41,387 bases of DNA, from positions 1 to 41,387 of IMG/VR virus record IMGVR_UViG_3300028840_003126. One strand, 5' to 3'. The notes below the pieces were generated by a model. That model was not told the DNA's origin, did no database searches, and was given only the letters and a program-made list of their open reading frames with translations. The translations under genes were made by a program, and so were the position numbers. Of the stretch, positions 2,998 through 41,387 are shown one piece after another. This DNA comes from a virus. Every line of letters starts with the position of its first letter. Within the stretch, counting starts at the first letter, position 1.

Positions 2998-5900
2998 TTA
3001 CATTCCTATAGCTTTAATGGTTAATATTAATTTTTGCAGATCCAGATGCAGGCTTTCTATGTGAAAATATGATGATCTGTCTATATCATAACGTCTTTCT
3101 GAATACACAGTGTTGAATCTGTCCCTTTGTTCTAATTCCAGGATTGGAATTGAATTCTGTTTTATGCTTTCCCGGATGGTGCCCAGATAACTGTGATTTT
3201 CATCTGCAATGGCTTTTGCCAGGAATTGATCTGTGATAAATCTGTTTTCCAGTTCCAGGCCACGCCTGTCCCATCCTGGTGTCCCAGATGTTTCATCACC
3301 ATTTGAATCATCCAGGATGGATTCCCAATTCACCTGGATGTAATCATAATAATGTTTCCAGATTCCCTGTGGCTGGATCCCTTCATTTAATAAATGCTTT
3401 TCACTGTAAAATGTGAAGGTGTCATCATATGTTTCCCTTTTATTCATGTTGAATTTTCGCTGGCTGTTGATCCATATGACAAAGGCAACCAGCTGTGCCA
3501 TGTCTGTCAGAACTTCCCTTAAAACCATGTTTGAAAAGTCTGCATATTGAATGACCGGATAAAAGCTTTCTGTATAGGACCACAGGACACCATTTTCACC
3601 AATGGTATTGCCTAAAATTTTATTGTTTCCGGATATCAGAAATGTGCTGTCATAATCTGAATGATCAATCACATCTTTTTCTGTGATGGTGATTGTTCCA
3701 CCACTGAATGTGGTTTCAATCAGATAGGATCCTTCTTTTTGATATCGTCTGTCAATGACCATGGCATATATTTTTTCGGTGGTGTCCACTGTGTGTGACA
3801 GAAAATGAATCATCTGCCGGTGTGGATCTGTCAATTGAATTGAATACATTTCATCTGCTGTGATGTCATATACAAAATAATGATATTCAAAATTTCCTCG
3901 GTCCAAAAGACATCCATGGATGGTGTTTTCAGTTGAATTTATGGCCATGTCCAAAATGACCTGGTATGCTTCCCGGCCAGTGATGGATTGCCCGGCTTCT
4001 GCTGAATCAGATGAAAAATTAAATAATGCTGTCAGACTTGATAAATTCCGATATAAAATGCAGGGTGATTTTGTCCCGGCACCTGAATCTGACCACTCCA
4101 TGAATGCCAGATAATTATATGTCCCATCAAATGTGATGGCCATGACATTGACATGGATATTTTTATTTGTATAAATATCATACATGGACCCTTCATTGCC
4201 CTGATAATCCACATATCTGATATCAGATTCAGCCAGGGTGTCATGGACCAGGCTGGACCATATGATCCACCGGTCATTGTTTGAATCCCACCGGACCACA
4301 TATGGATTTCCCAATTCAAAGGGAAAAGCCAGATTGCTTTGGTCGCCGGTCCCGGTCACGTTGTCATTCAGCATATAATGTCCGGCTGGGCAAAAATATT
4401 CTGTTCCTGAATTTGGATTTGATGGCCAGCCGGTTCCGAAATAAAACCGGCCATTGCCGGTGATGTTGTTGGTGTCCAAACCATTGGCATCATATAATAC
4501 ATTTTCTGATCCGGGATAATGTGACAACATCTGTGGATAAGGAATGCACAGATTTTCACCTGAACTTCTTAATGTGGAATATCCTATGGTCCGATGATCC
4601 GCACCATCATAATATCCATTCCGGTATTGCCTTTTTCCGGTCCTGGCATAGATCTGAAAAAAATCATAAAAATCAGTGATGCCACCGGTGTTGGCCCGGA
4701 AGGTAAAATTGAACCTGGTGGCCGGTGTCTTTGGCCACTTTTGTTCCCCAATGCCATGGATCTGATTCGCTGCATCCATGGCCAGGGCAGAAATTATGTG
4801 GACTGTTGTCAGGACATCTGTGGGTGGTGGCACTGTGTCAATATGTTCAAATCCTTCTGTTTCATCAAATGTCCACAATTCATCTTCAATTCCCAGCCAC
4901 CACAATTGCCTGTTTGCATCCCAGAATCCTGCAGTGACCTTTTTCCCATAAAATGGATATGGTGCCTGGCCAAATATATGAATAGTGGGATCATCAGAAG
5001 TCAATGCCAGGGTGTCAATGTTCCGGTCTGCACTTAAAATATTTGCTTTATCCAGGCATAGATCCACAATTTTATTTATGGGTAAATTCCTATACCAGTT
5101 TGCAGTGATCCAGTTTCCGGAATCATCCTGTCTGATGATCAGATCTTCTTCTAAATCCACTTGGCCAAATTTGGTGAAGTCATGTTCAAGATCAATGGAC
5201 CGGCCATCTGTTCCATATAGCCGGATCCTTCTGGTCACCCGGTCAAAATAGGCTGCACCGGATCCATAGGATGATATATATATCCGGATCCCATAAAGAT
5301 TCTGGACATCATCCAGACCGGATGGTTCCTGGGCTGTCGGCCTCCACCCTTCTGCTGCAGCCTTGGTCCAGGTGATGGTTCCATCCTGGGATAAATTGCT
5401 GCTGCCATCTGTGACTGTCAGTGATGCCCAGGTGTCAAATCCTTTTGAATACATCACAGAAATGGTGGATGATGCCAGATTTGAACTTTCACCCAGGATG
5501 ATGTTCAAACCATAGAATGGCCGGTCAGAATAAAAATATATATAATCACTGGCATCATCTAAGGCTTCATATTCATCCCCGGACACATTATTTTCACCGG
5601 TTTCTTCTGTGTAAGTGCTGCCATCATATCTGATCACCCGGATAAAATCAGTGACCAGATCTTCCCATTGTCCCTTGTTAAATTGAATTTTCGGGATCCC
5701 CTCTGCTGCCACTTCCGGCTTTAATTCATTTTCAACAATGACAATTCCTTCCCGGCTTTGCACATCAAAGGTGGTGCAATCCACAGTGATAGTGGTGGTG
5801 TCCTTTGCTGTCAATGTCTGGCCGGTGGTGTCTTCGGTCAATGTAGTCAGGGCACCATTGTCCCAGGAAAAAAGATCTGGATAAACAAATTTCAGTGATT

Positions 5901-12303: not shown

Positions 12304-14249
12304 TAATTTTTGACCTTAAAATTTAGGTTTTTAAAATATTCATGCAATTTGTTTACGTCTTTTTCATGTTCCTTGCTTTTTGTATAATAAAAATAATATC
12401 TGATTTCACCAAATGTGATCACCAATGGCTGTGGCACATCACCGATGGCTGCAGCTGCCTGTGGTGTGAAGATTATATCACCATATATGAATGTGGGATC
12501 TGACTTGGATCCAATGGCACTGGCCGGATCCGGTGTGATAAAAAATTGACCGGCAAAAACTTTCGGATCTGCTTTGGATCCAATGGCACTGGCCGGATCC
12601 GGTGTGATCGATAATGACCCATATATCACCACAGGATCTGTTTTATTGCCCAGGGCATTGATGGCATCTGGTGAAATAATTAGGCTGCCCAGGACCACAG
12701 TGGGATCTGACTTGGATCCAATGGCACTGGCCGGATCCGGTGTGAAGTTTATATCACCATATATAAATGTAGGATCCACCTTGGATCCAATGGCATTGAT
12801 GGCTGCCGGTGTCAAGGTCAGTGTGCCATATATAACTGTCGGATCTACTTTTCCACCCAGGGCATTAATCGGATCCGGTGTGACCAGTTCCACATTTGCT
12901 GGAATTGTGGGATCCACTTTTCTGCCCAGGGCATTGATGGCTGATGGTGTGATCGTCTGGCTGCCCAGGACCACAGTGGGATCCACTTTGGTTCCGATGG
13001 CATTAATCGCACCTGGTGTGATAATTAAACCACCACCCAGGACAAAGGGATCCACTTTTCTGCCCAGGGCATTGATGGCTGCCGGTGTGATGGCCAGGCT
13101 GCCCAGGACCACTGTGGGATCCACTTTTCTGCCCAGGGCATTAATCGCACCTGGTGTGATGGCCAGGCTGCCCAGGACCACTGTGGGATCCGCTTTTCTG
13201 CCCAGGGCATTGATGGCTGCCGGTGTGATCGTCTGGCTGCCCAGGACCACTGTGGGATCCACTTTGGATCCAATGCCACTGGCCGGATCCGGTGTGATGG
13301 GTGGCTGGCCAATGGCCACGGTGGGATCCACTTTTCTGCCCAGGGCATTGATGGCTGCCGGTGTCAAGGTCAATGTGCCATATACAACTGTCGGATCTAC
13401 TTTGCCACCCAGGGCATTGATGGCTGCCGGTGTGATGGCCAGGCTGCCATATATGACTGTTGGATCCACTTTGGTTCCGATGGCATTAATCGCACCTGGT
13501 GTGATGGCCAGGCTGCCCAGGACCACTGTGGGATCCACTTTGGATCCTATGGCATTGATGGCTGCCGGTGTGATCGTCTGGCTGCCCAGGACCACTGTGG
13601 GATCCACTTTGGTTCCTATGGCATTGATGGCTGATGGTGTCAAATTCAAACTTCCTTTCACAACTGTTGGATCCACTTTGGATCCTATGCCACTGATGGC
13701 ACCTGGTGTGATGATCAGGGCTGTGGCTGCAGTCAATACCTGTGGATGTGTTTCAGTTCCCAGATTTATTTCTGCATATCCGGTGCCATCTCCACTGTTT
13801 AACACCCGGAAATAATATGTGGTGCCACCAGTCACATTGGCAGTGGGCACAATGGCAAAATCAAATTCATAATCACTGCCGGCTAACATGTCAAATGTCG
13901 TTTGACCATCTGATTCCCTGTATGGCCCTTTTCCGGTGGTGTCTGACAATTTATTTGTGGTGACTGTATTATCTTCTGTGGCCTGGCCATTGGCATAATC
14001 AAAATGATTTGCTGATCCCAAAACGGTCCATGATGATTCATCTGTTGAATATTCAATACGCCAATATCCATTGTTTTGTCCACTCTCACCAGTGGATTCA
14101 TATATCCTGACCCTCAATCTAAAAATATCAGAATTGTTGGCCAGTGTCGGTTTCACATTTTCTGCTGCCAGGGCAGTGGATGGTTCTGCTGCATCATCAT
14201 CCATCATCCGCCAATTGCCCTGATTTGGTGTGAAGGCAGCATGGCCCAT
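12303..14249 (-). CDS. Repeat-containing fibre/decoration-like protein (648 aa): ~179-aa N-terminal domain, 19 x 23-aa repeats, short C-terminal tail
   Basis: ORF track. I/L/V/F-T/S-P recurs at residues 180, 203, 226 ... 594 with no indel. Confidence 0.85.
   Translation of the reverse strand: MGHAAFTPNQGNWRMMDDDAAEPSTALAAENVKPTLANNSDIFRLRVRIYESTGESGQNNGYWRIEYSTDESSWTVLGSANHFDYANGQATEDNTVTTNKLSDTTGKGPYRESDGQTTFDMLAGSDYEFDFAIVPTANVTGGTTYYFRVLNSGDGTGYAEINLGTETHPQVLTAATALIITPGAISGIGSKVDPTVVKGSLNLTPSAINAIGTKVDPTVVLGSQTITPAAINAIGSKVDPTVVLGSLAITPGAINAIGTKVDPTVIYGSLAITPAAINALGGKVDPTVVYGTLTLTPAAINALGRKVDPTVAIGQPPITPDPASGIGSKVDPTVVLGSQTITPAAINALGRKADPTVVLGSLAITPGAINALGRKVDPTVVLGSLAITPAAINALGRKVDPFVLGGGLIITPGAINAIGTKVDPTVVLGSQTITPSAINALGRKVDPTIPANVELVTPDPINALGGKVDPTVIYGTLTLTPAAINAIGSKVDPTFIYGDINFTPDPASAIGSKSDPTVVLGSLIISPDAINALGNKTDPVVIYGSLSITPDPASAIGSKADPKVFAGQFFITPDPASAIGSKSDPTFIYGDIIFTPQAAAAIGDVPQPLVITFGEIRYYFYYTKSKEHEKDVNKLHEYFKNLNFKVKN
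12402..13712 (-). repeat. 19 tandem 69-bp coding repeats (consensus ITPAAINAIGxKVDPTVVLGSLx)
   Basis: Exact 23-codon periodicity. Many units share identical runs of more than 30 bp (for example gccaggctgcccaggaccactgtgggatccacttt). Confidence 0.9.
14001..14040. repeat. 40-bp exact repeat, copy 1 (inside the fibre gene, encodes ESSWTVLGSANHF)
   Basis: aaaatgatttgctgatcccaaaacggtccatgatgattca is identical at 26672..26711. Confidence 0.9.
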
Positions 14250-23886: not shown

Positions 23887-25458
23887 TTAATTTATAAAAT
23901 CTGAATAACTTTCATTTGAATGATCTACCTGATCAATGATCGATGCAGCCAGATTTGATGTGATGATCTGGCCACCTTCCACAGCCAGCATTCCCAGGTC
24001 CGGTTCCAGCAGCATTTTATCATTTGCACAGGCCATGGCCATATTGGTTGAATCAAAGGCATCATCACCGATTTCCGGTTTTATGGCTTCCAGGGTGGGA
24101 TAAGATGAATTATTCATCACTTCCCGGATATTAAGCAAACATTGCTTTAATCTGAAAGCCATTTTTGCAATGTGCCGGTCATCTGTTTTGTCAAAATATG
24201 GAATGATCAGTTTTTTTGCTTCAATCTTCACCTTGGTGATCCCACCGGCCAGGTACTTAAATCGGCCAGTGTTCCACTTTGGTGTGAAGGCCCATTTTTC
24301 CCAATTAGATGGCTTATTCTCCGGAAATTCCTGCCTGTCTATATCAATTAGACCACGGTCAAATAATCTGTCATTTAACATGGCAATATCATTTGCTTTC
24401 AAGGCATCACCATATCCGGCACTGACACCATAATATTCCCACCAGTCACCGGCTTCTTTCATGATCAGTTCCGGATCTGTGGTGGATTCCCATTCCTTGC
24501 CATTCAGCCACAGGGCCACATCACCGATCATTTCAATAATATCCATCCTATAAACTGAATGCTGTTTCCCTTCCCCGGAATGGCCCATATCTAATCCCAG
24601 ATAAGTGGTTCCCCTGGGCCTGTAGGATCCGGACCGGTATTCCACACCCTGCCATCCGATCCGCAATGCTTCCATCAGGCATTCACGCAGATGTGTTTCC
24701 CAGATAAAATTCCTGGCATCTGTATATTTCAAAAGATAGATTCTCAGCCACTGATCATCTGTCAGTTTGTCCCTGATTTCTTCAATGGCCACTTTATCAT
24801 ATATGCCAAATTCCAGGCCATCATATATATCAAATTTTGGGACCAGGGCATATCCAGGATCATTTTCATATTCAAACATCGGACCTTTTCCCCACTGGAT
24901 GGTCCCTGACAGCCGGATCCGCAATGGAAGGCCAGACACATTTTTCCGGCCACCACGCTGGATGACTCTGTTTGTCCAGATTTCAAGATCCATGTCATCC
25001 CATTCTTCACCACGCAGTATTGTTGCATTTTCACTGTCAAAATTAGATCTGATGCCAAATGTTTCTGCACCGGATCTGTTCAAAAATTCATATTTTGTTT
25101 CACTGATCTGTTTTTTGCCACGCCTGGTGGCAATCCAGGATGATAATATTTCAGATATTTCAATAAATTCCAGCTGTTCTTTTAGGGCATTATTTGCCTG
25201 TTTCTGCACCGGACCAAAAATCATTTCTTTTTCATATGGATTTGTGGCCACTTCTTCCAGGCATACAGCTTCCATGTCCCAGGTCTTTCCAAATCTCGGT
25301 GGCCACACCTGGACCACCTTTGGATGTTCCTTTATCACTTGCATGGCTATGATCTGCCAGGGATCTGTATCCTTGCCGGTTTTGTGTTTTATCCATGATG
25401 GTGTGTCACCCTTGAATTTCATCACAGCTTCTTCCACCCTCAATGATGCCTTAATCAT
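23887..25458 (-). CDS. terL: Terminase large subunit (523 aa)
   Basis: Walker-A-like VWPPRFGKTW. Size and position upstream of the portal gene fit. Confidence 0.85.
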   Translation of the reverse strand: MIKASLRVEEAVMKFKGDTPSWIKHKTGKDTDPWQIIAMQVIKEHPKVVQVWPPRFGKTWDMEAVCLEEVATNPYEKEMIFGPVQKQANNALKEQLEFIEISEILSSWIATRRGKKQISETKYEFLNRSGAETFGIRSNFDSENATILRGEEWDDMDLEIWTNRVIQRGGRKNVSGLPLRIRLSGTIQWGKGPMFEYENDPGYALVPKFDIYDGLEFGIYDKVAIEEIRDKLTDDQWLRIYLLKYTDARNFIWETHLRECLMEALRIGWQGVEYRSGSYRPRGTTYLGLDMGHSGEGKQHSVYRMDIIEMIGDVALWLNGKEWESTTDPELIMKEAGDWWEYYGVSAGYGDALKANDIAMLNDRLFDRGLIDIDRQEFPENKPSNWEKWAFTPKWNTGRFKYLAGGITKVKIEAKKLIIPYFDKTDDRHIAKMAFRLKQCLLNIREVMNNSSYPTLEAIKPEIGDDAFDSTNMAMACANDKMLLEPDLGMLAVEGGQIITSNLAASIIDQVDHSNESYSDFIN

Positions 25459-26336: not shown

Positions 26337-26339
26337 ATT

Positions 26340-26415
26340 GTGGCCTTCATTATTTATGGCACTTTCGACTTCGATTGTCTATTATAACAATATAAATGCC
26401 TTAAATGAAGGCCAC
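26340..26415 (-). promoter_or_regulatory. Perfect 12-bp inverted repeat (gtggccttcatt / aatgaaggccac, 52-nt loop) occluding the RBS of the TerS-like gene
   Basis: Arms at 26340-26351 and 26404-26415. In the minus-strand mRNA the 3' arm contains GAAGG and ends 3 nt before the GTG start. Confidence 0.5.
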
Positions 26416-26428
26416 ATATCAAAGATTA

Positions 26429-26668: not shown

Positions 26669-26755
26669 TTAAAAATGATTTGCTGATCCCAAAACGGTCC
26701 ATGATGATTCAATTTCCTGGAATACAATTAAAAAATGTGATTTTGCTTTTTCCAT
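26669..26755 (-). CDS. 28-aa micro-ORF MEKAKSHFLIVFQEIESSWTVLGSANHF (C-terminus encoded by the 40-bp repeat)
   Basis: The ATG at 26755 lies 1 nt after the TGA of the upstream ORF. TAA at 26671-26669. Below the track size cutoff. Confidence 0.3.
   Translation of the reverse strand: MEKAKSHFLIVFQEIESSWTVLGSANHF
26672..26711. repeat. 40-bp exact repeat, copy 2
   Basis: Identical to 14001..14040. Confidence 0.9.
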
Positions 26756-27718: not shown

Positions 27719-27965
27719 ATTGATTCCCTTCTGATTTAAATGAATACTTGCACTGATCAATGCAGTTCATTCCCTGGTCACAATACTTATGTTTCCTGCC
27801 CTTCCTGGCCACCAGGCTGACACATCTGGCCTGGTGGTGTGTGATAGGATGAAACATGCACTGCAGATGATTACAATGGCCATGCATGGCCCTGGTGCCA
27901 CAGATCCGGATGATCACATCATCCCTTACATTTTGGACATAATATTGCATCGGTATGATTAGCAT
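27699..27965 (-). CDS. Cys/His-rich small protein (88 aa)
   Basis: ORF track. Contains HGHCNHLQC..H..HH..C...C..C..C. Confidence 0.5.
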   Translation of the reverse strand: MLIIPMQYYVQNVRDDVIIRICGTRAMHGHCNHLQCMFHPITHHQARCVSLVARKGRKHKYCDQGMNCIDQCKYSFKSEGNQYELLSM

Positions 27966-28010
27966 CTAAAATGTAGTATTTATGGCACTTCTCACATTTT
28001 ACATATTCGC

Positions 28011-30485: not shown

Positions 30486-30707
30486 TTACTTTTTTAGTTT
30501 ATTCACCATGTCCTGGGTGATGGGTGTTTCTACTTTCCAGTGACCGGTAACCTGTGGATTGTCTTCTGGATCCACTTTATATATTGGATTGTTTCCTTTT
30601 CTAAATTCTTCCAGGATCATCACCAGGTGTGCCCTGATCGATGCCAAAAGCCAGAAAAATATCACCACAATCACTATGGTAATCATTGATATCATGATTT
30701 TTTCCAT
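30486..30707 (-). CDS. Small single-TM protein with a charged C-terminus (73 aa); holin-like topology
   Basis: MISMITIVIVVIFFWLLASI followed by a Lys/Glu/Asp-rich tail. Preceded by leader element A and GAAGGGAAG. Confidence 0.65.
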   Translation of the reverse strand: MEKIMISMITIVIVVIFFWLLASIRAHLVMILEEFRKGNNPIYKVDPEDNPQVTGHWKVETPITQDMVNKLKK

Positions 30708-30722: not shown

Positions 30723-30758
30723 AAAAAAACGGCTTCCATATTTCGATTCTAAGGGCCG
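30723..30758 (-). terminator. Leader element A: bulged hairpin with the conserved 15-nt loop followed by U7
   Basis: The minus strand reads CGGccCTTagaatcgaaatatggAAGCCGttttttt. Twenty-three nt (30731-30753) are identical to 38371-38393. Confidence 0.55.
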
Positions 30759-30767
30759 ATCTCTGCC

Positions 30768-30790
30768 AGGTTAATGGTTTTGTATGGACC
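30768..30790 (-). promoter_or_regulatory. Leader element A: conserved upstream box
   Basis: The minus strand reads ggtccatacaaaaccattaacct. The 13-nt aaaccattaacct is identical to 38408-38420. Confidence 0.45.
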
Positions 30791-34322: not shown

Positions 34323-34412
34323 TTTAATTCCTATTCATTAATAAATCCGGCAGCTTTTCAATCCACTACGTTTGTTGATAACGGGAAAAATGGGAAAAAG
34401 CCACCGGATTTT

Positions 34413-37874: not shown

Positions 37875-38345
37875 TTAAGATTGATTTTTTATAATGCCAT
37901 TTGTGATATGGGCATGCTGAAACATGTGACCAGGGCAGGATTTATATGGTGCCTTGTCCCGATGAAATATTATTTTATCCTGGCCAATATCGAATATTTT
38001 CATCAATGGGATGATCAATCTGGTGCAGGCCACATCAATCATTTCCACCGGTGGTGCTTTTTCATCATAGTTTCCCACAAAACAGATGGCAATTGCCTTT
38101 TTATTCATTCCACCTTCTTTGATATGGGCACCTGGCAAATGCAATGGCCTTCCCACCAGGACTTCATATGTATTGTCAATCAATTCAATCCCATAATGAT
38201 ATCCAACATCTGACCATCCATTTTCATTTATATGCCAGTTCCGGATGGCACGCCAATTGAACACAGTGCCATCTGTAGACAATGAATGATGGATCCCAAT
38301 GTGTGTCCAGGGCCTGAATATTTTCTTTTTTCTGCTAAATATCAT
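37875..38345 (-). CDS. N-acetylmuramoyl-L-alanine amidase endolysin (Amidase_2/PGRP type), 156 aa; the track start at 38423 is too far upstream
   Basis: THIGIHHS, GYHYGI and FHRD..YKSCPG motifs. GGAAGGGGA lies upstream of the ATG at 38345. The longer track ORF reads through the hairpin-U7 element. Confidence 0.85.
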   Translation of the reverse strand: MIFSRKKKIFRPWTHIGIHHSLSTDGTVFNWRAIRNWHINENGWSDVGYHYGIELIDNTYEVLVGRPLHLPGAHIKEGGMNKKAIAICFVGNYDEKAPPVEMIDVACTRLIIPLMKIFDIGQDKIIFHRDKAPYKSCPGHMFQHAHITNGIIKNQS

Positions 38346-38407: not shown

Positions 38408-38429
38408 AGGTTAATGGTTTCATATGTCC
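38408..38429 (-). promoter_or_regulatory. Leader element B: conserved upstream box
   Basis: The minus strand reads ggacatatgaaaccattaacct. Confidence 0.45.
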
Positions 38430-38481
38430 TGCCCGGTGATCTTACTAGGGCAGCCAGGTTTTGACAGGATCCAGCCTGGTT

Positions 38482-40691: not shown

Positions 40692-41387
40692 TCTTCTATT
40701 CTCCTGATTATAAGGTTATCAAAAGTTTGAATTGAATCTTGGCTTTGTATGGCCCATCTTGCTACATCACTGTGATATCCGGCTGAATCTTGCAAAGCTG
40801 TGTGTGAACCATTTGTGTTCTGAATAATCACACTGTAAACTGTATCATTTGCTGTCACTATAAAATGATCATTATTTGTGACAATGGCTGATGGATTAGA
40901 TCCGGTTGAAATTACTGTTGCACCACCACCAGCATCATTATACATAAATCTTACGGTGGAATCTGATTGCATTGAAAATCCCAGCCAGTTGTTATTGTCT
41001 TCATAATGAAAATAAAACCAGGCTGTCCTGCCCGTTACCCAGCCATTTTCAAAATCAAATTCCGCAACATAATCAGAATCTGATAATGCAATACTTGCCC
41101 TAGCTGTCGAGCCATCATCTGTGGTGGCTTTTTTGTTTTTTATTCCCATGTTTCCTAATTCTGGGATCCAGATACTGTCAATATCAGAAAATTTTGGTAC
41201 TGTCAATGAATCATTATTTATTCTGCCAAATTCATCTGCAAATATATATGGATCAAGGCCAATATAGGCTTTTAATTGTTCAAGTGATGCATCAATGTTT
41301 GAAAAGTCAGATGCAAACACCCTTAAATCATTATAAGGTTGATCAGCGCCAACATTTAAAACATCAGCTGCCGCCCAATCATGTACG
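40688..41387 (-). CDS. C-terminal part of the interrupted beta-helix gene (jelly-roll-like C-terminal domain); the upstream part lies at 602..1 through the terminal repeat
   Basis: Track ORF 40688..41320 begins at an internal GTG. The frame stays open to 41387 and is in phase with 1..602. ATGA overlap with 39564..40691. Confidence 0.75.
   Translation of the reverse strand, partial: VHDWAAADVLNVGADQPYNDLRVFASDFSNIDASLEQLKAYIGLDPYIFADEFGRINNDSLTVPKFSDIDSIWIPELGNMGIKNKKATTDDGSTARASIALSDSDYVAEFDFENGWVTGRTAWFYFHYEDNNNWLGFSMQSDSTVRFMYNDAGGGATVISTGSNPSAIVTNNDHFIVTANDTVYSVIIQNTNGSHTALQDSAGYHSDVARWAIQSQDSIQTFDNLIIRRIEE
41244..41387. repeat. Terminal direct repeat, right copy (identical to 1..144)
   Basis: Same comparison. 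This is the signature of a circular assembly overlap or true terminal redundancy. Confidence 0.95.

Follow-up and report, generated by a model that had tools for sequence, protein, structure and literature searches.

The DNA analysed here (the window) comprises the 41,387 nucleotides of IMG/VR virus record IMGVR_UViG_3300028840_003126, a temperate tailed phage of a poorly sampled lineage whose credible genes all lie on the minus strand, and in it three modular intergenic cassettes mark the starts of gene blocks. Each cassette comprises a conserved A/T-rich box (CATAyrAAACCATT...), a fixed spacing, and a hairpin with a T-rich tract, set directly 5' of the next ribosome-binding site (RBS). By analogy with the promoter-early stem-loop (PeSL) cassettes of T4-type phages, we tentatively propose that these are composite punctuation cassettes that may stop read-through from upstream, possibly restart transcription, and act as hotspots of recombination.

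The two best-defined cassettes, copy A (30785-30723) and copy B (38425-38362), both on the minus strand, have in common a 13-nt box, a 14-nt gap, a 23-nt core, a run of seven T (T7), a Shine-Dalgarno (SD) sequence, and an ATG. Direct re-reading bore out the layout described in an initial annotation, namely a box, a spacer, a hairpin with an identical 15-nt loop, seven U, an SD, and a start codon. A repeat finder reported the copies as a 64-nt pair with 78% identity, and their similarity far exceeds chance. The 13-nt box has exactly two exact occurrences in the window, and the core (CTTAGAATCGAAATATGGAAGCC) likewise has two, with no match in 100 shuffles. Copy A opens with the box ATACAAAACCATTAACCT (30785-30768), which includes a TATRAA-like TACAAA at 30784-30779 and a -35-like TTAACC at 30774-30769, and runs on through a spacer (GGCAGAGAT, 30767-30759), the 5' arm of the hairpin (CGGCCCTT, 30758-30751), the loop (AGAATCGAAATATGG, 30750-30736), the 3' arm (AAGCCG, 30735-30730), and T7 (30729-30723). 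The SD region and start (GAAGGGAAG, 30722-30705, with the SD at about 30719-30711) place the ATG at 30707, 28 nt from the end of the loop. Copy B has the same order of parts: the box (ATATGAAACCATTAACCT, 38425-38408, with TATGAA at 38424-38419 and TTAACC at 38414-38409), a spacer (ATCTAAAAAA, 38407-38398), the 5' arm (GTGGCTT, 38397-38391), a 15-nt loop identical to that of copy A (38390-38376), the 3' arm (AAGCCAC, 38375-38369), T7 (38368-38362), and an SD region and start (GGAAGGGGA, 38361-38343), in which the ATG at 38345, 30 nt from the loop, is the real start of the endolysin gene. The core spans 30753-30731 in copy A and 38393-38371 in copy B. At both copies, a promoter scan picked up TTAACC and TAGAAT separated by 17 bp, with 9/12 hexamer matches and ATAyrAAA upstream. 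The -10-like TAGAAT (30751-30746 and 38391-38386) begins on the final base of the 5' arm and takes in the first five loop bases, and the 5' arm sits in the 17-bp spacer; in both copies the stem-loop thus lies between, or overlaps, the promoter-like hexamers. The box sequence ATATGAAACC also resembles the 3' half of the core (ATATGAAAGCC), and the two form direct repeats 44 bp apart.

Both cassettes occupy the interval between an upstream stop codon (30802 and 38482) and the SD and start codon of the next gene (30707 and 38345). Copy A follows a gene for a lipoprotein-like product and precedes one for a 73-aa protein with a single N-terminal transmembrane (TM) segment. The initial annotation called this protein holin-like, but it matches no holin family and its tail, with 7 K/R and 7 D/E residues, carries no positive excess. 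Copy B follows a gene for a 206-aa TM protein and, as the annotation stated, precedes an amidase endolysin, which matched Amidase_2 in protein-family scans of 30 window proteins against Pfam and/or PHROGs. The stem of copy A requires a 2-nt bulge, and its minimal hairpin folds no better than shuffles; with the A/T-rich extension included, it reaches -13.7 kcal/mol (z -2.0). The hairpin of copy B with its A/T extension reaches -14.2 kcal/mol with the loop remaining open, and its full extent with the T-run is 38403-38362, with a 13-bp stem (AAAAAAGTGGCTT/AAGCCACTTTTTT). A G+C-containing stem followed immediately by T7 is found in window copies A and B, in the related contigs L033 and L096, and at site 1 of an unrelated siphovirus (L001), with stems of 6-14 bp. 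A covariance model built from the copies found no further copy in the window, and a search of Rfam 15 with the window and 13 core-carrying loci gave no match at the gathering threshold and only chance-level ones at E values up to 10. Directly upstream of box B (38426-38470, minus strand) stands a second hairpin, CTGCCC-TAGTAAGATCACC-GGGCAG, with a counterpart in L096 at about 38-70 (GGGTGAAT...ATTCACCC); both loops contain AAGATC.

The bipartite layout is real and under selection, and it is retained at orthologous sites. In IMG/VR 3300017971_000567 (L017, L016), which is about 75-82% identical, the cassette precedes the orthologs of both the amidase gene and the 73-aa gene; site A is present in L033, whose primase is 95% identical, and site B in L096 and L097, whose amidases are 81% and 83% identical. 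Across the lineage copies, the spacer diverges, whereas the box CATAyrAAACCATTAAC, the 14-nt distance to CTTAGAA, the stem, and the greater part of the loop are retained. The initial annotation had staked its case on the loop and box being kept in relatives, and at these orthologous sites the box and most of the loop are. In more distant phages (L028-L032), whose primases are about 60% identical, the element is not present, and iteron arrays are found after the primase gene instead. These short direct-repeat arrays (L028 12925-13253; L031 12300-12419; L032 5975-6213, where the array lies two genes further downstream of the primase) comprise GGGACATTCAC in at least four copies and TGGACA-type repeats, arranged as large inverted structures; they are probably replication origins, and the window has no such array there. 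Two high-GC phages, L036 and L037, were set aside as irrelevant.

The hairpin itself appears to be maintained by selection on pairing. Outside the hairpin, L033 and copy A are the same except for one base where the box begins, and the L033 arms (CGGGCCTT...AAGGCCG) pair better than those of copy A (CGGCCCTT...AAGCCG). The annotated observation that the outer stem differs between copies yet still pairs therefore holds among relatives as well, and the stem changes are compensatory. The stem of the L017 counterpart of copy A (A') is GAAAGTGGCTT/AAGCCACTTTC, and that of L096 is 14 bp long. In a nine-sequence alignment, in-register pairing reached 72.6% of cells versus 65.6% in shuffles, with one of 500 shuffles reaching the observed value, and was at most 61.5% when the arms were slid. 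Each of the six lineage copies folds into a stable hairpin with an open loop (-13 to -16.5 kcal/mol, z -2.0 to -5.5), and the loop is 14-15 nt long in all of them. In the lineage the loop lies 28 or 30 nt from the start codon; in L001 the figure is 30 or 33 nt.

The third cassette, site C (15179-15130, minus strand), consists of the box, a different hairpin, and ATTTTG. Thirteen bases (ATATAAAACCATT) of its box (CATATAAAACCATTG, 15179-15165; CATATAAAACCATT at 15179-15166) are identical to the box of relatives, and its hairpin, ATGGGC-CTATTTC-GCCCAT (15154-15136), is unlike those of copies A and B. The site is retained in a relative (L039), and the initial annotation, which had noted only a weaker third box here, understated it. 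Because the box recurs at site C with another hairpin, box and hairpin are separable modules.

The same arrangement extends to L001. A covariance model from the lineage copies found two weaker sites in this siphovirus fragment, which carries three cassettes in total around its capsid and tail genes. The first lies before the major head gene, where TATATAAACATACC is followed by CGCTTAGA, which has a canonical hairpin and T8. In the second (site 1), located after that gene, GGTATAAACATATAGG is followed by the core and T7. After the major tail gene (site 2), a canonical terminator is followed by GGTATAAATATATGGG and then the core, which has no hairpin of its own here and lies between terminator and RBS, the position expected of a promoter. 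At both L001 core sites, as in 6/6 copies of the window lineage, the start of a TATRAA hexamer precedes AGAATCG by exactly 34 nt, although the intervening sequence differs. Site C heads a block of virion and tail genes in the window. Its different hairpin, together with the L001 cassettes around capsid and tail genes, indicates that the element is not lysis-specific, and the earlier suggestion that it co-regulates a split lysis cassette finds no support.

Differences in gene content between relatives border cassettes of the window. Indels flank site C on both sides, and the gene upstream of site A is largely replaced, its lipoprotein-like product being homologous to that of the relative over the first 50 aa only. 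At site C, an island of about 180 nt (15185-15007), from the box onward, is 68-82% identical to the L017 lineage and has unrelated sequence on either side. A 152-aa gene directly upstream and a four-gene block of about 3 kb directly downstream, which includes the gene for a 648-aa repeat protein, are present in the window but lacking in the relative. The copies are also alike within a genome, with loop centres reading TCGA/TCGA in the window, TCGA/TCGA in L001, and GGCG/GCCG in L017. Moreover, A' of L017 is 75% identical to window copy B versus 67% to its positional ortholog, copy A, and has a B-type stem.

We suggest that RNA arriving from upstream, often accessory, genes would fold the hairpin of A-tract, stem, and U-tract and so be terminated or attenuated. 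The same DNA has a promoter-like geometry, in which the AT-rich box, TTAACC, 17 bp, and TAGAAT would place +1 at the A of the loop ATG. A transcript begun inside the hairpin would lack the 5' arm and, for that reason, would escape termination and read into the downstream gene. In an alternative register, the invariant AAATAT would direct a pyrimidine-purine start directly after GCC; this register fits the conservation pattern better, yet it comes without any -35. We thus regard promoter activity of the cassettes as putative. Near-identical cassettes would double as sites of homologous exchange, and such exchange could account for copies that are alike within a genome, for the B-like character of A' in L017, and for the gene indels that abut cassettes.

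The comparison with PeSLs supports this proposal in part. In published descriptions of PeSLs (Arbiol et al. 2010, PMC2839356; Comeau et al. 2014, PMC4122927), an AT-rich stretch and a -35 come first, then a stem-loop that mostly sits between the hexamers or extends over the -10, and finally an SD and an ATG; the stem-loop ends upstream transcription, the promoter restarts it, and recombination between cassettes shuffles genes. The cassettes reported here are similar in having an AT-rich stretch before a -35-like hexamer and a stem-loop between the hexamers or overlapping the -10, in being repeated in one genome, and in copies that appear to homogenise or exchange; where close relatives differ by insertions, deletions, or replacements, these too abut the cassettes. 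They differ in that their hexamers match at only 9/12 positions and relatives do not keep the -10 T, whereas PeSLs are described as matching the sigma-70 consensus. They number two to three per genome, whereas PeSLs are described as dense series in hyperplastic regions of T4-type genomes, and the carrier is a temperate 41-kb phage rather than a T4-type myovirus. Furthermore, their 15-nt loop contains an independently occurring motif, whereas PeSL stems are described as G/C tracts, with no conserved loop reported. By this analogy, the closest counterparts of the cassette are the mobile terminator/promoter cassettes of T4-type phages rather than lambda-style antitermination sites, and we would place the element among composite regulatory cassettes as a variant of its own rather than as a proven member of the PeSL family.

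A number of observations weigh against a punctuation role of this kind. The initial annotation emphasized exactly seven U after each hairpin, which is correct for window copies A and B, but the run is not conserved: the T-tract of L017 is CACTTTCAGG at A', a weak run of three T, and CATTTTCTTC at B', and these Ts pair mainly with upstream As. The last T of TAGAAT, ordinarily the most strongly conserved base of a -10, is replaced by G or C (TAGAAG/TAGAAC) in L017, L033, L096, and L034/L035. No -35 stands in register in L001, and at site C a -10-like hexamer is lacking at 17 bp from the box. With its 15 nt, the loop exceeds the length typical of intrinsic terminators, and a terminator scan (loop 3-8 nt) did not call the sites. 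The low copy number, set against the dense PeSL series, counts in the same direction. Finally, in four carriers outside the lineage (L035, L068, L075, and L078) the core is antisense to flanking open reading frames (ORFs), in long non-coding regions. Because the core outside the lineage is mostly without a hairpin and partly antisense, it must have a function of its own.

The loop motif, TTAGAA-N3-4-AATATGRAAGCC, 22-23 nt long, is also present in unrelated phages and a RepA plasmid. Exact or near-exact copies of the core are carried by L001 (also found within a 236-kb contig, L011) and by the RepA plasmid (L005/L010); further phage-like carriers are L034/L035/L068, L061, L075/L083, and L078, and L040, L059, L060, L092, and L094 probably carry it too. 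The carriers outside the lineage have no protein in common with the window and no other nucleotide similarity to it, and core identity reaches 100% over 23 nt in elements that otherwise have no nucleotide similarity. An A precedes AATATG in 8 of the 9 relaxed-pattern hits having TTAGAA versus 15 of the 39 others (Fisher p = 0.009), and on this basis the outer members of the motif are treated as probable, not certain. A strong stem surrounds the core outside the lineage only in L061. Most other carriers have no stem or T-run, and the core is kept without either in L005, L034/L035, L040, L078, L092, and site 2 of L001. Canonical sigma-70 promoters lie downstream of the core at about 60 nt in L005 and about 115-120 nt in L078. 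A literal search of the literature found the loop motif in no paper, and no trans-factor gene is common to the carrier elements, whose contigs are partial.

It is possible, though we hold this more loosely than the proposal of a composite cassette, that the motif is a cis-element in its own right, not described before, which moves among otherwise unrelated phages and plasmids (GC 32-55%) and is read by a conserved host component. In the window lineage, this element would be embedded in a terminator hairpin and coupled to the lineage's own box, with the variable trinucleotide as specificity determinant. It might serve, for example, as an unconventional, compact promoter or start module, built either on the invariant AAATAT and a pyrimidine-purine start after GCC or on a leaderless AUG; a host protein that binds RNA or DNA might equally recognise it. 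Several features of individual carriers can be recorded alongside. More TTAGAAT-like words surround the core in L034 (about 4700-4900, oriented), L035 (3620-3760), and L068. In L034/L035, ATTCTAAC occurs twice upstream of the core, inverted, and TTTAGAATC downstream, where L068 has TTTGTAATC. The flank ATTTAAAGCyCTTAGAA is common to L034/L035/L068, L078, and L075, and the flanks of L034/L035/L068 suggest a larger conserved non-coding unit in those phages. A mini-stem pairing the bases 5' of TTAGAA with the variable centre was considered, with candidates GCG/CGC (L040), GAG/CTC (L060), GGC/GCC (L017 B'), and TCG/CGA (L001, L092), and was rejected because the registers are inconsistent. In a Spirosomataceae metagenome-assembled genome (JAWKMH010000010.1, L002 6448-6921), a stretch at the 3' end of a DUF1801-type host gene agrees with 23 nt of the core (TTAGAATCGAAATATGGAAGCCA), with AACCATTA 9 nt upstream. 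The extension past the 19-nt seed is unusual, and given the size of the database we judged the match to be due to chance.

Alternatively, the core, and perhaps the box, may be a DNA site for a host-encoded or widely shared protein, such as a stoperator-like roadblock or silencing site or the site of a regulator or nucleoid protein, with the hairpin secondary. We think this unlikely, even though it would explain why the core is conserved in loci without a stem or T-run and is consistent with the asymmetry of the core, with the direct repeats that its 3' half forms with the box, and with its location upstream of the canonical promoters of L005 and L078. The carriers' lack of a common protein would also point to a host factor. 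On the other hand, the compensatory stem changes argue for a folded single strand, a DNA site leaves the fixed 28-33 nt distance to start codons unexplained, and only two to three sites are present per genome, with no candidate binding protein identified. Stoperators of cluster A mycobacteriophages are asymmetric 13-bp repressor sites that lie in intergenic regions in one orientation and number in the tens per genome. The present sites are similarly short, asymmetric, conserved, and intergenic, within operons and in a single orientation with respect to transcription, but stoperators are far more numerous and are bound by the phage's own repressor, whereas the core recurs across protein-unrelated elements.

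Somewhat less probable still is a 5'-UTR (untranslated region) element acting in RNA, either a processing or stability site or a translation module in which the loop AUG opens a short ORF whose translation could open the hairpin and be coupled to that of the following gene. In most copies such an ORF (MEA.../MKA..., about 7-27 codons) does run from the loop ATG through the 3' arm and T-run to end near the downstream start. The core would be single-stranded in the 15-nt loop, its distance to the RBS is fixed, and the ATG is present in every copy; the stop of the short ORF at L001 site 1 lies 2 nt ahead of the real start. The L001 sites also follow capsid and tail genes, where differential mRNA stability is common. 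However, no SD precedes the loop ATG, although the genes of the phage have strong AAAGGGGA-type SDs, and several copies are antisense to neighbouring ORFs. The peptides are not conserved past the three codons that lie in conserved DNA, and the invariant wobble position of GCC indicates selection at the nucleotide level, not the peptide level.

The initial annotation proposed antitermination or attenuation; processive antitermination could run through a nut-like site (with the box as boxA and the loop as boxB), a put-like RNA that acts on RNA polymerase directly, or a promoter-proximal terminator overcome by a Q-like factor. The part of that proposal that stands is the bipartite layout with its fixed 14-nt spacing, conserved loop, gene-wise orientation, and two to three copies; as in lambda nut and HK022 put, a box, a short spacer, and a hairpin with a conserved loop recur along the direction of transcription. 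Loop centres that are alike within and different between genomes look as if they co-evolved with a specificity factor, and the TATRAA hexamer 34 nt upstream could be a -10, which would make the hairpin promoter-proximal. The remaining evidence makes this mechanism improbable. No N, Q, sigma, or late-activator-like regulator is recognisable among the 30 proteins scanned, although small arginine-rich proteins could escape such a scan; in particular, there is no Q-family match, and the genes upstream encode lipoprotein-like, TM, and function-unassigned proteins. The box AAACCATTAACCT is unlike the lambda boxA consensus (CGCTCTTA / GCTCTTTAACAA), the 15-nt loop is unlike the boxB pentaloop, and nut hairpins themselves are not trailed by U-tracts, whereas T7 follows here. 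The TATRAA hexamer ends in A, not T, in 7/7 lineage boxes and has no consistent -35, and there is no Rfam match. The third box is paired with a different hairpin, and because the U-tract is not constant in L017, a terminator that needs to be overcome is not a constant feature either. Since a plasmid and phages that have no protein in common with the window phage carry this loop core as well, a phage-specific antiterminator that recognises the loop is unlikely.

It is just as improbable that the cassettes are ordinary intrinsic terminators of recent common ancestry, related by duplication, gene conversion, or horizontal transfer, with the conservation of loop and box being functionless. The A-tract, stem, and T7 do have the form of a bidirectional terminator, and the sites follow genes; in L001 they stand exactly after the major capsid and major tail genes, much as stems with T-runs do in the late operons of siphoviruses. 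Such terminators differ in having neither a conserved 15-nt loop nor a box at a fixed upstream distance. Neutral loops would not stay constant while adjacent stem bases change, and a shared origin as terminators does not explain a core that is 100% identical over 23 nt in otherwise dissimilar elements and is kept there without stem or T-run. Nor does it explain a box that is kept at a third site with another hairpin and conserved between phages only about 75-82% identical while the spacer diverges.

Further candidates were rejected outright. A small ORF across the core (LRIEIWKP or LESKYGS) has no start in copy A, L017 B', or L001 and is interrupted by a stop in L017 A', and its wobble positions are invariant. 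An attP core is contradicted by two copies 1.7 and 9.3 kb from the integrase gene, by two in the L001 structural operon, and by a sole host-genome match, the DUF1801-type gene of L002, without an adjacent prophage. Mimicry of a CRISPR repeat, or a REP-like host repeat, was dismissed after a scan of genomes from 185,579 species plus metagenomes revealed no arrays or multi-copy hosts, only single hits that are mostly chance and inside genes. The 23-bp conserved block with its variable trinucleotide is suggestive of a promoter for a single-subunit (T7-type) RNA polymerase. No such enzyme is encoded in the complete genome, however, where the DnaG-type primase is the sole large protein that has enzymatic domains, and one carrier is a plasmid. 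By inspection, no consistent match across the core variants was seen to the sigma-54, ECF, sigma-28, Bacteroidetes -33/-7, or sporulation-sigma consensus, nor to IHF, DnaA, LexA, CodY, cre, or dif/Xer sites.

The genomic setting of the cassettes can be summarized as follows. A repeat finder showed that the first 144 bases of the window recur identically at 41244-41387, and this identity of the ends indicates that the genome is complete, either circular or terminally redundant, and about 41.2 kb long (about 41,243 bp). ENA and Logan assemblies include near-identical contigs of 41,384 nt, and a nucleotide-level search with the window matched no annotated phage. GC content is 40.8%, no tRNA gene was found in the window, and AAAGGGGA-type SDs precede most genes. 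The protein-family scans recognised a 997-aa DnaG-type primase, a tyrosine integrase, the Amidase_2 endolysin, a minor-tail-like repeat protein, and a virion structural protein. A 523-aa terminase-like protein (23887-25458) rests on a single tblastn match, 31% identical, to a 'DNA packaging protein' of a Microcystis phage.

Other parts of the window are also distinctive. Between the end of the tail genes and a 210-aa gene, a gap of about 1.8 kb (296-2057) has a GC content of 35% and no ORF longer than 77 aa on either strand, and its two longest plus-strand ORFs match no PHROG; it could house cos or pac sites, regulatory RNAs, or a lysogeny switch. The 250-nt non-coding gap directly downstream of the integrase gene (27761-28010) is highly structured (minimum free energy -71.9 kcal/mol), with several long inverted repeats, and is the more likely attP region. 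Long intergenic hairpins stand directly before the primase gene (34323-34412, with a 17-bp stem, AAATCCGGTGGCTTTTT...AAAAGCTGCCGGATTT) and before a 293-aa gene (26337-26428, with a stem of about 13 bp, GTGGCCTTCATT...AATGAAGGCCAC). The arms of the latter resemble the cassette stems (GTGGCTT/AAGCCAC, GGCCTT/AAGGCC), and its loop includes AATCGAA. The ORF of the 648-aa protein, which matches the PHROG minor tail protein family, contains about 14-19 tandem 69-nt (23-aa) repeats at 12442-13736, and the whole gene is missing from the L017-lineage relative. Within this ORF, in the 3-kb block missing from the relative, lies one copy (14001-14040) of a perfect 40-nt direct repeat (minus strand TGAATCATCATGGACCGTTTTGGGATCAGCAAATCATTTT). 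The other copy (26672-26711) is in the intergenic gap before a 70-aa excisionase-like gene, and the identity ends abruptly at both edges; the repeat could be a recombination scar or reflect regulatory pairing.

Our findings bear on how temperate phages organise and exchange their genes. If the proposed reading is correct, the principle of the mobile regulatory cassette would reach beyond T4-type myoviruses to a small temperate phage of an uncultured host, and it would provide a handle on the swapping of accessory genes such as the lipoprotein-like gene and the minor-tail block. The motif common to unrelated phages and a plasmid, which is present neither in Rfam nor in the literature searched, is a candidate new recognition signal. 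Its reader, once identified, would reveal how diverse mobile elements that have one host range in common connect to the same machinery of the host.

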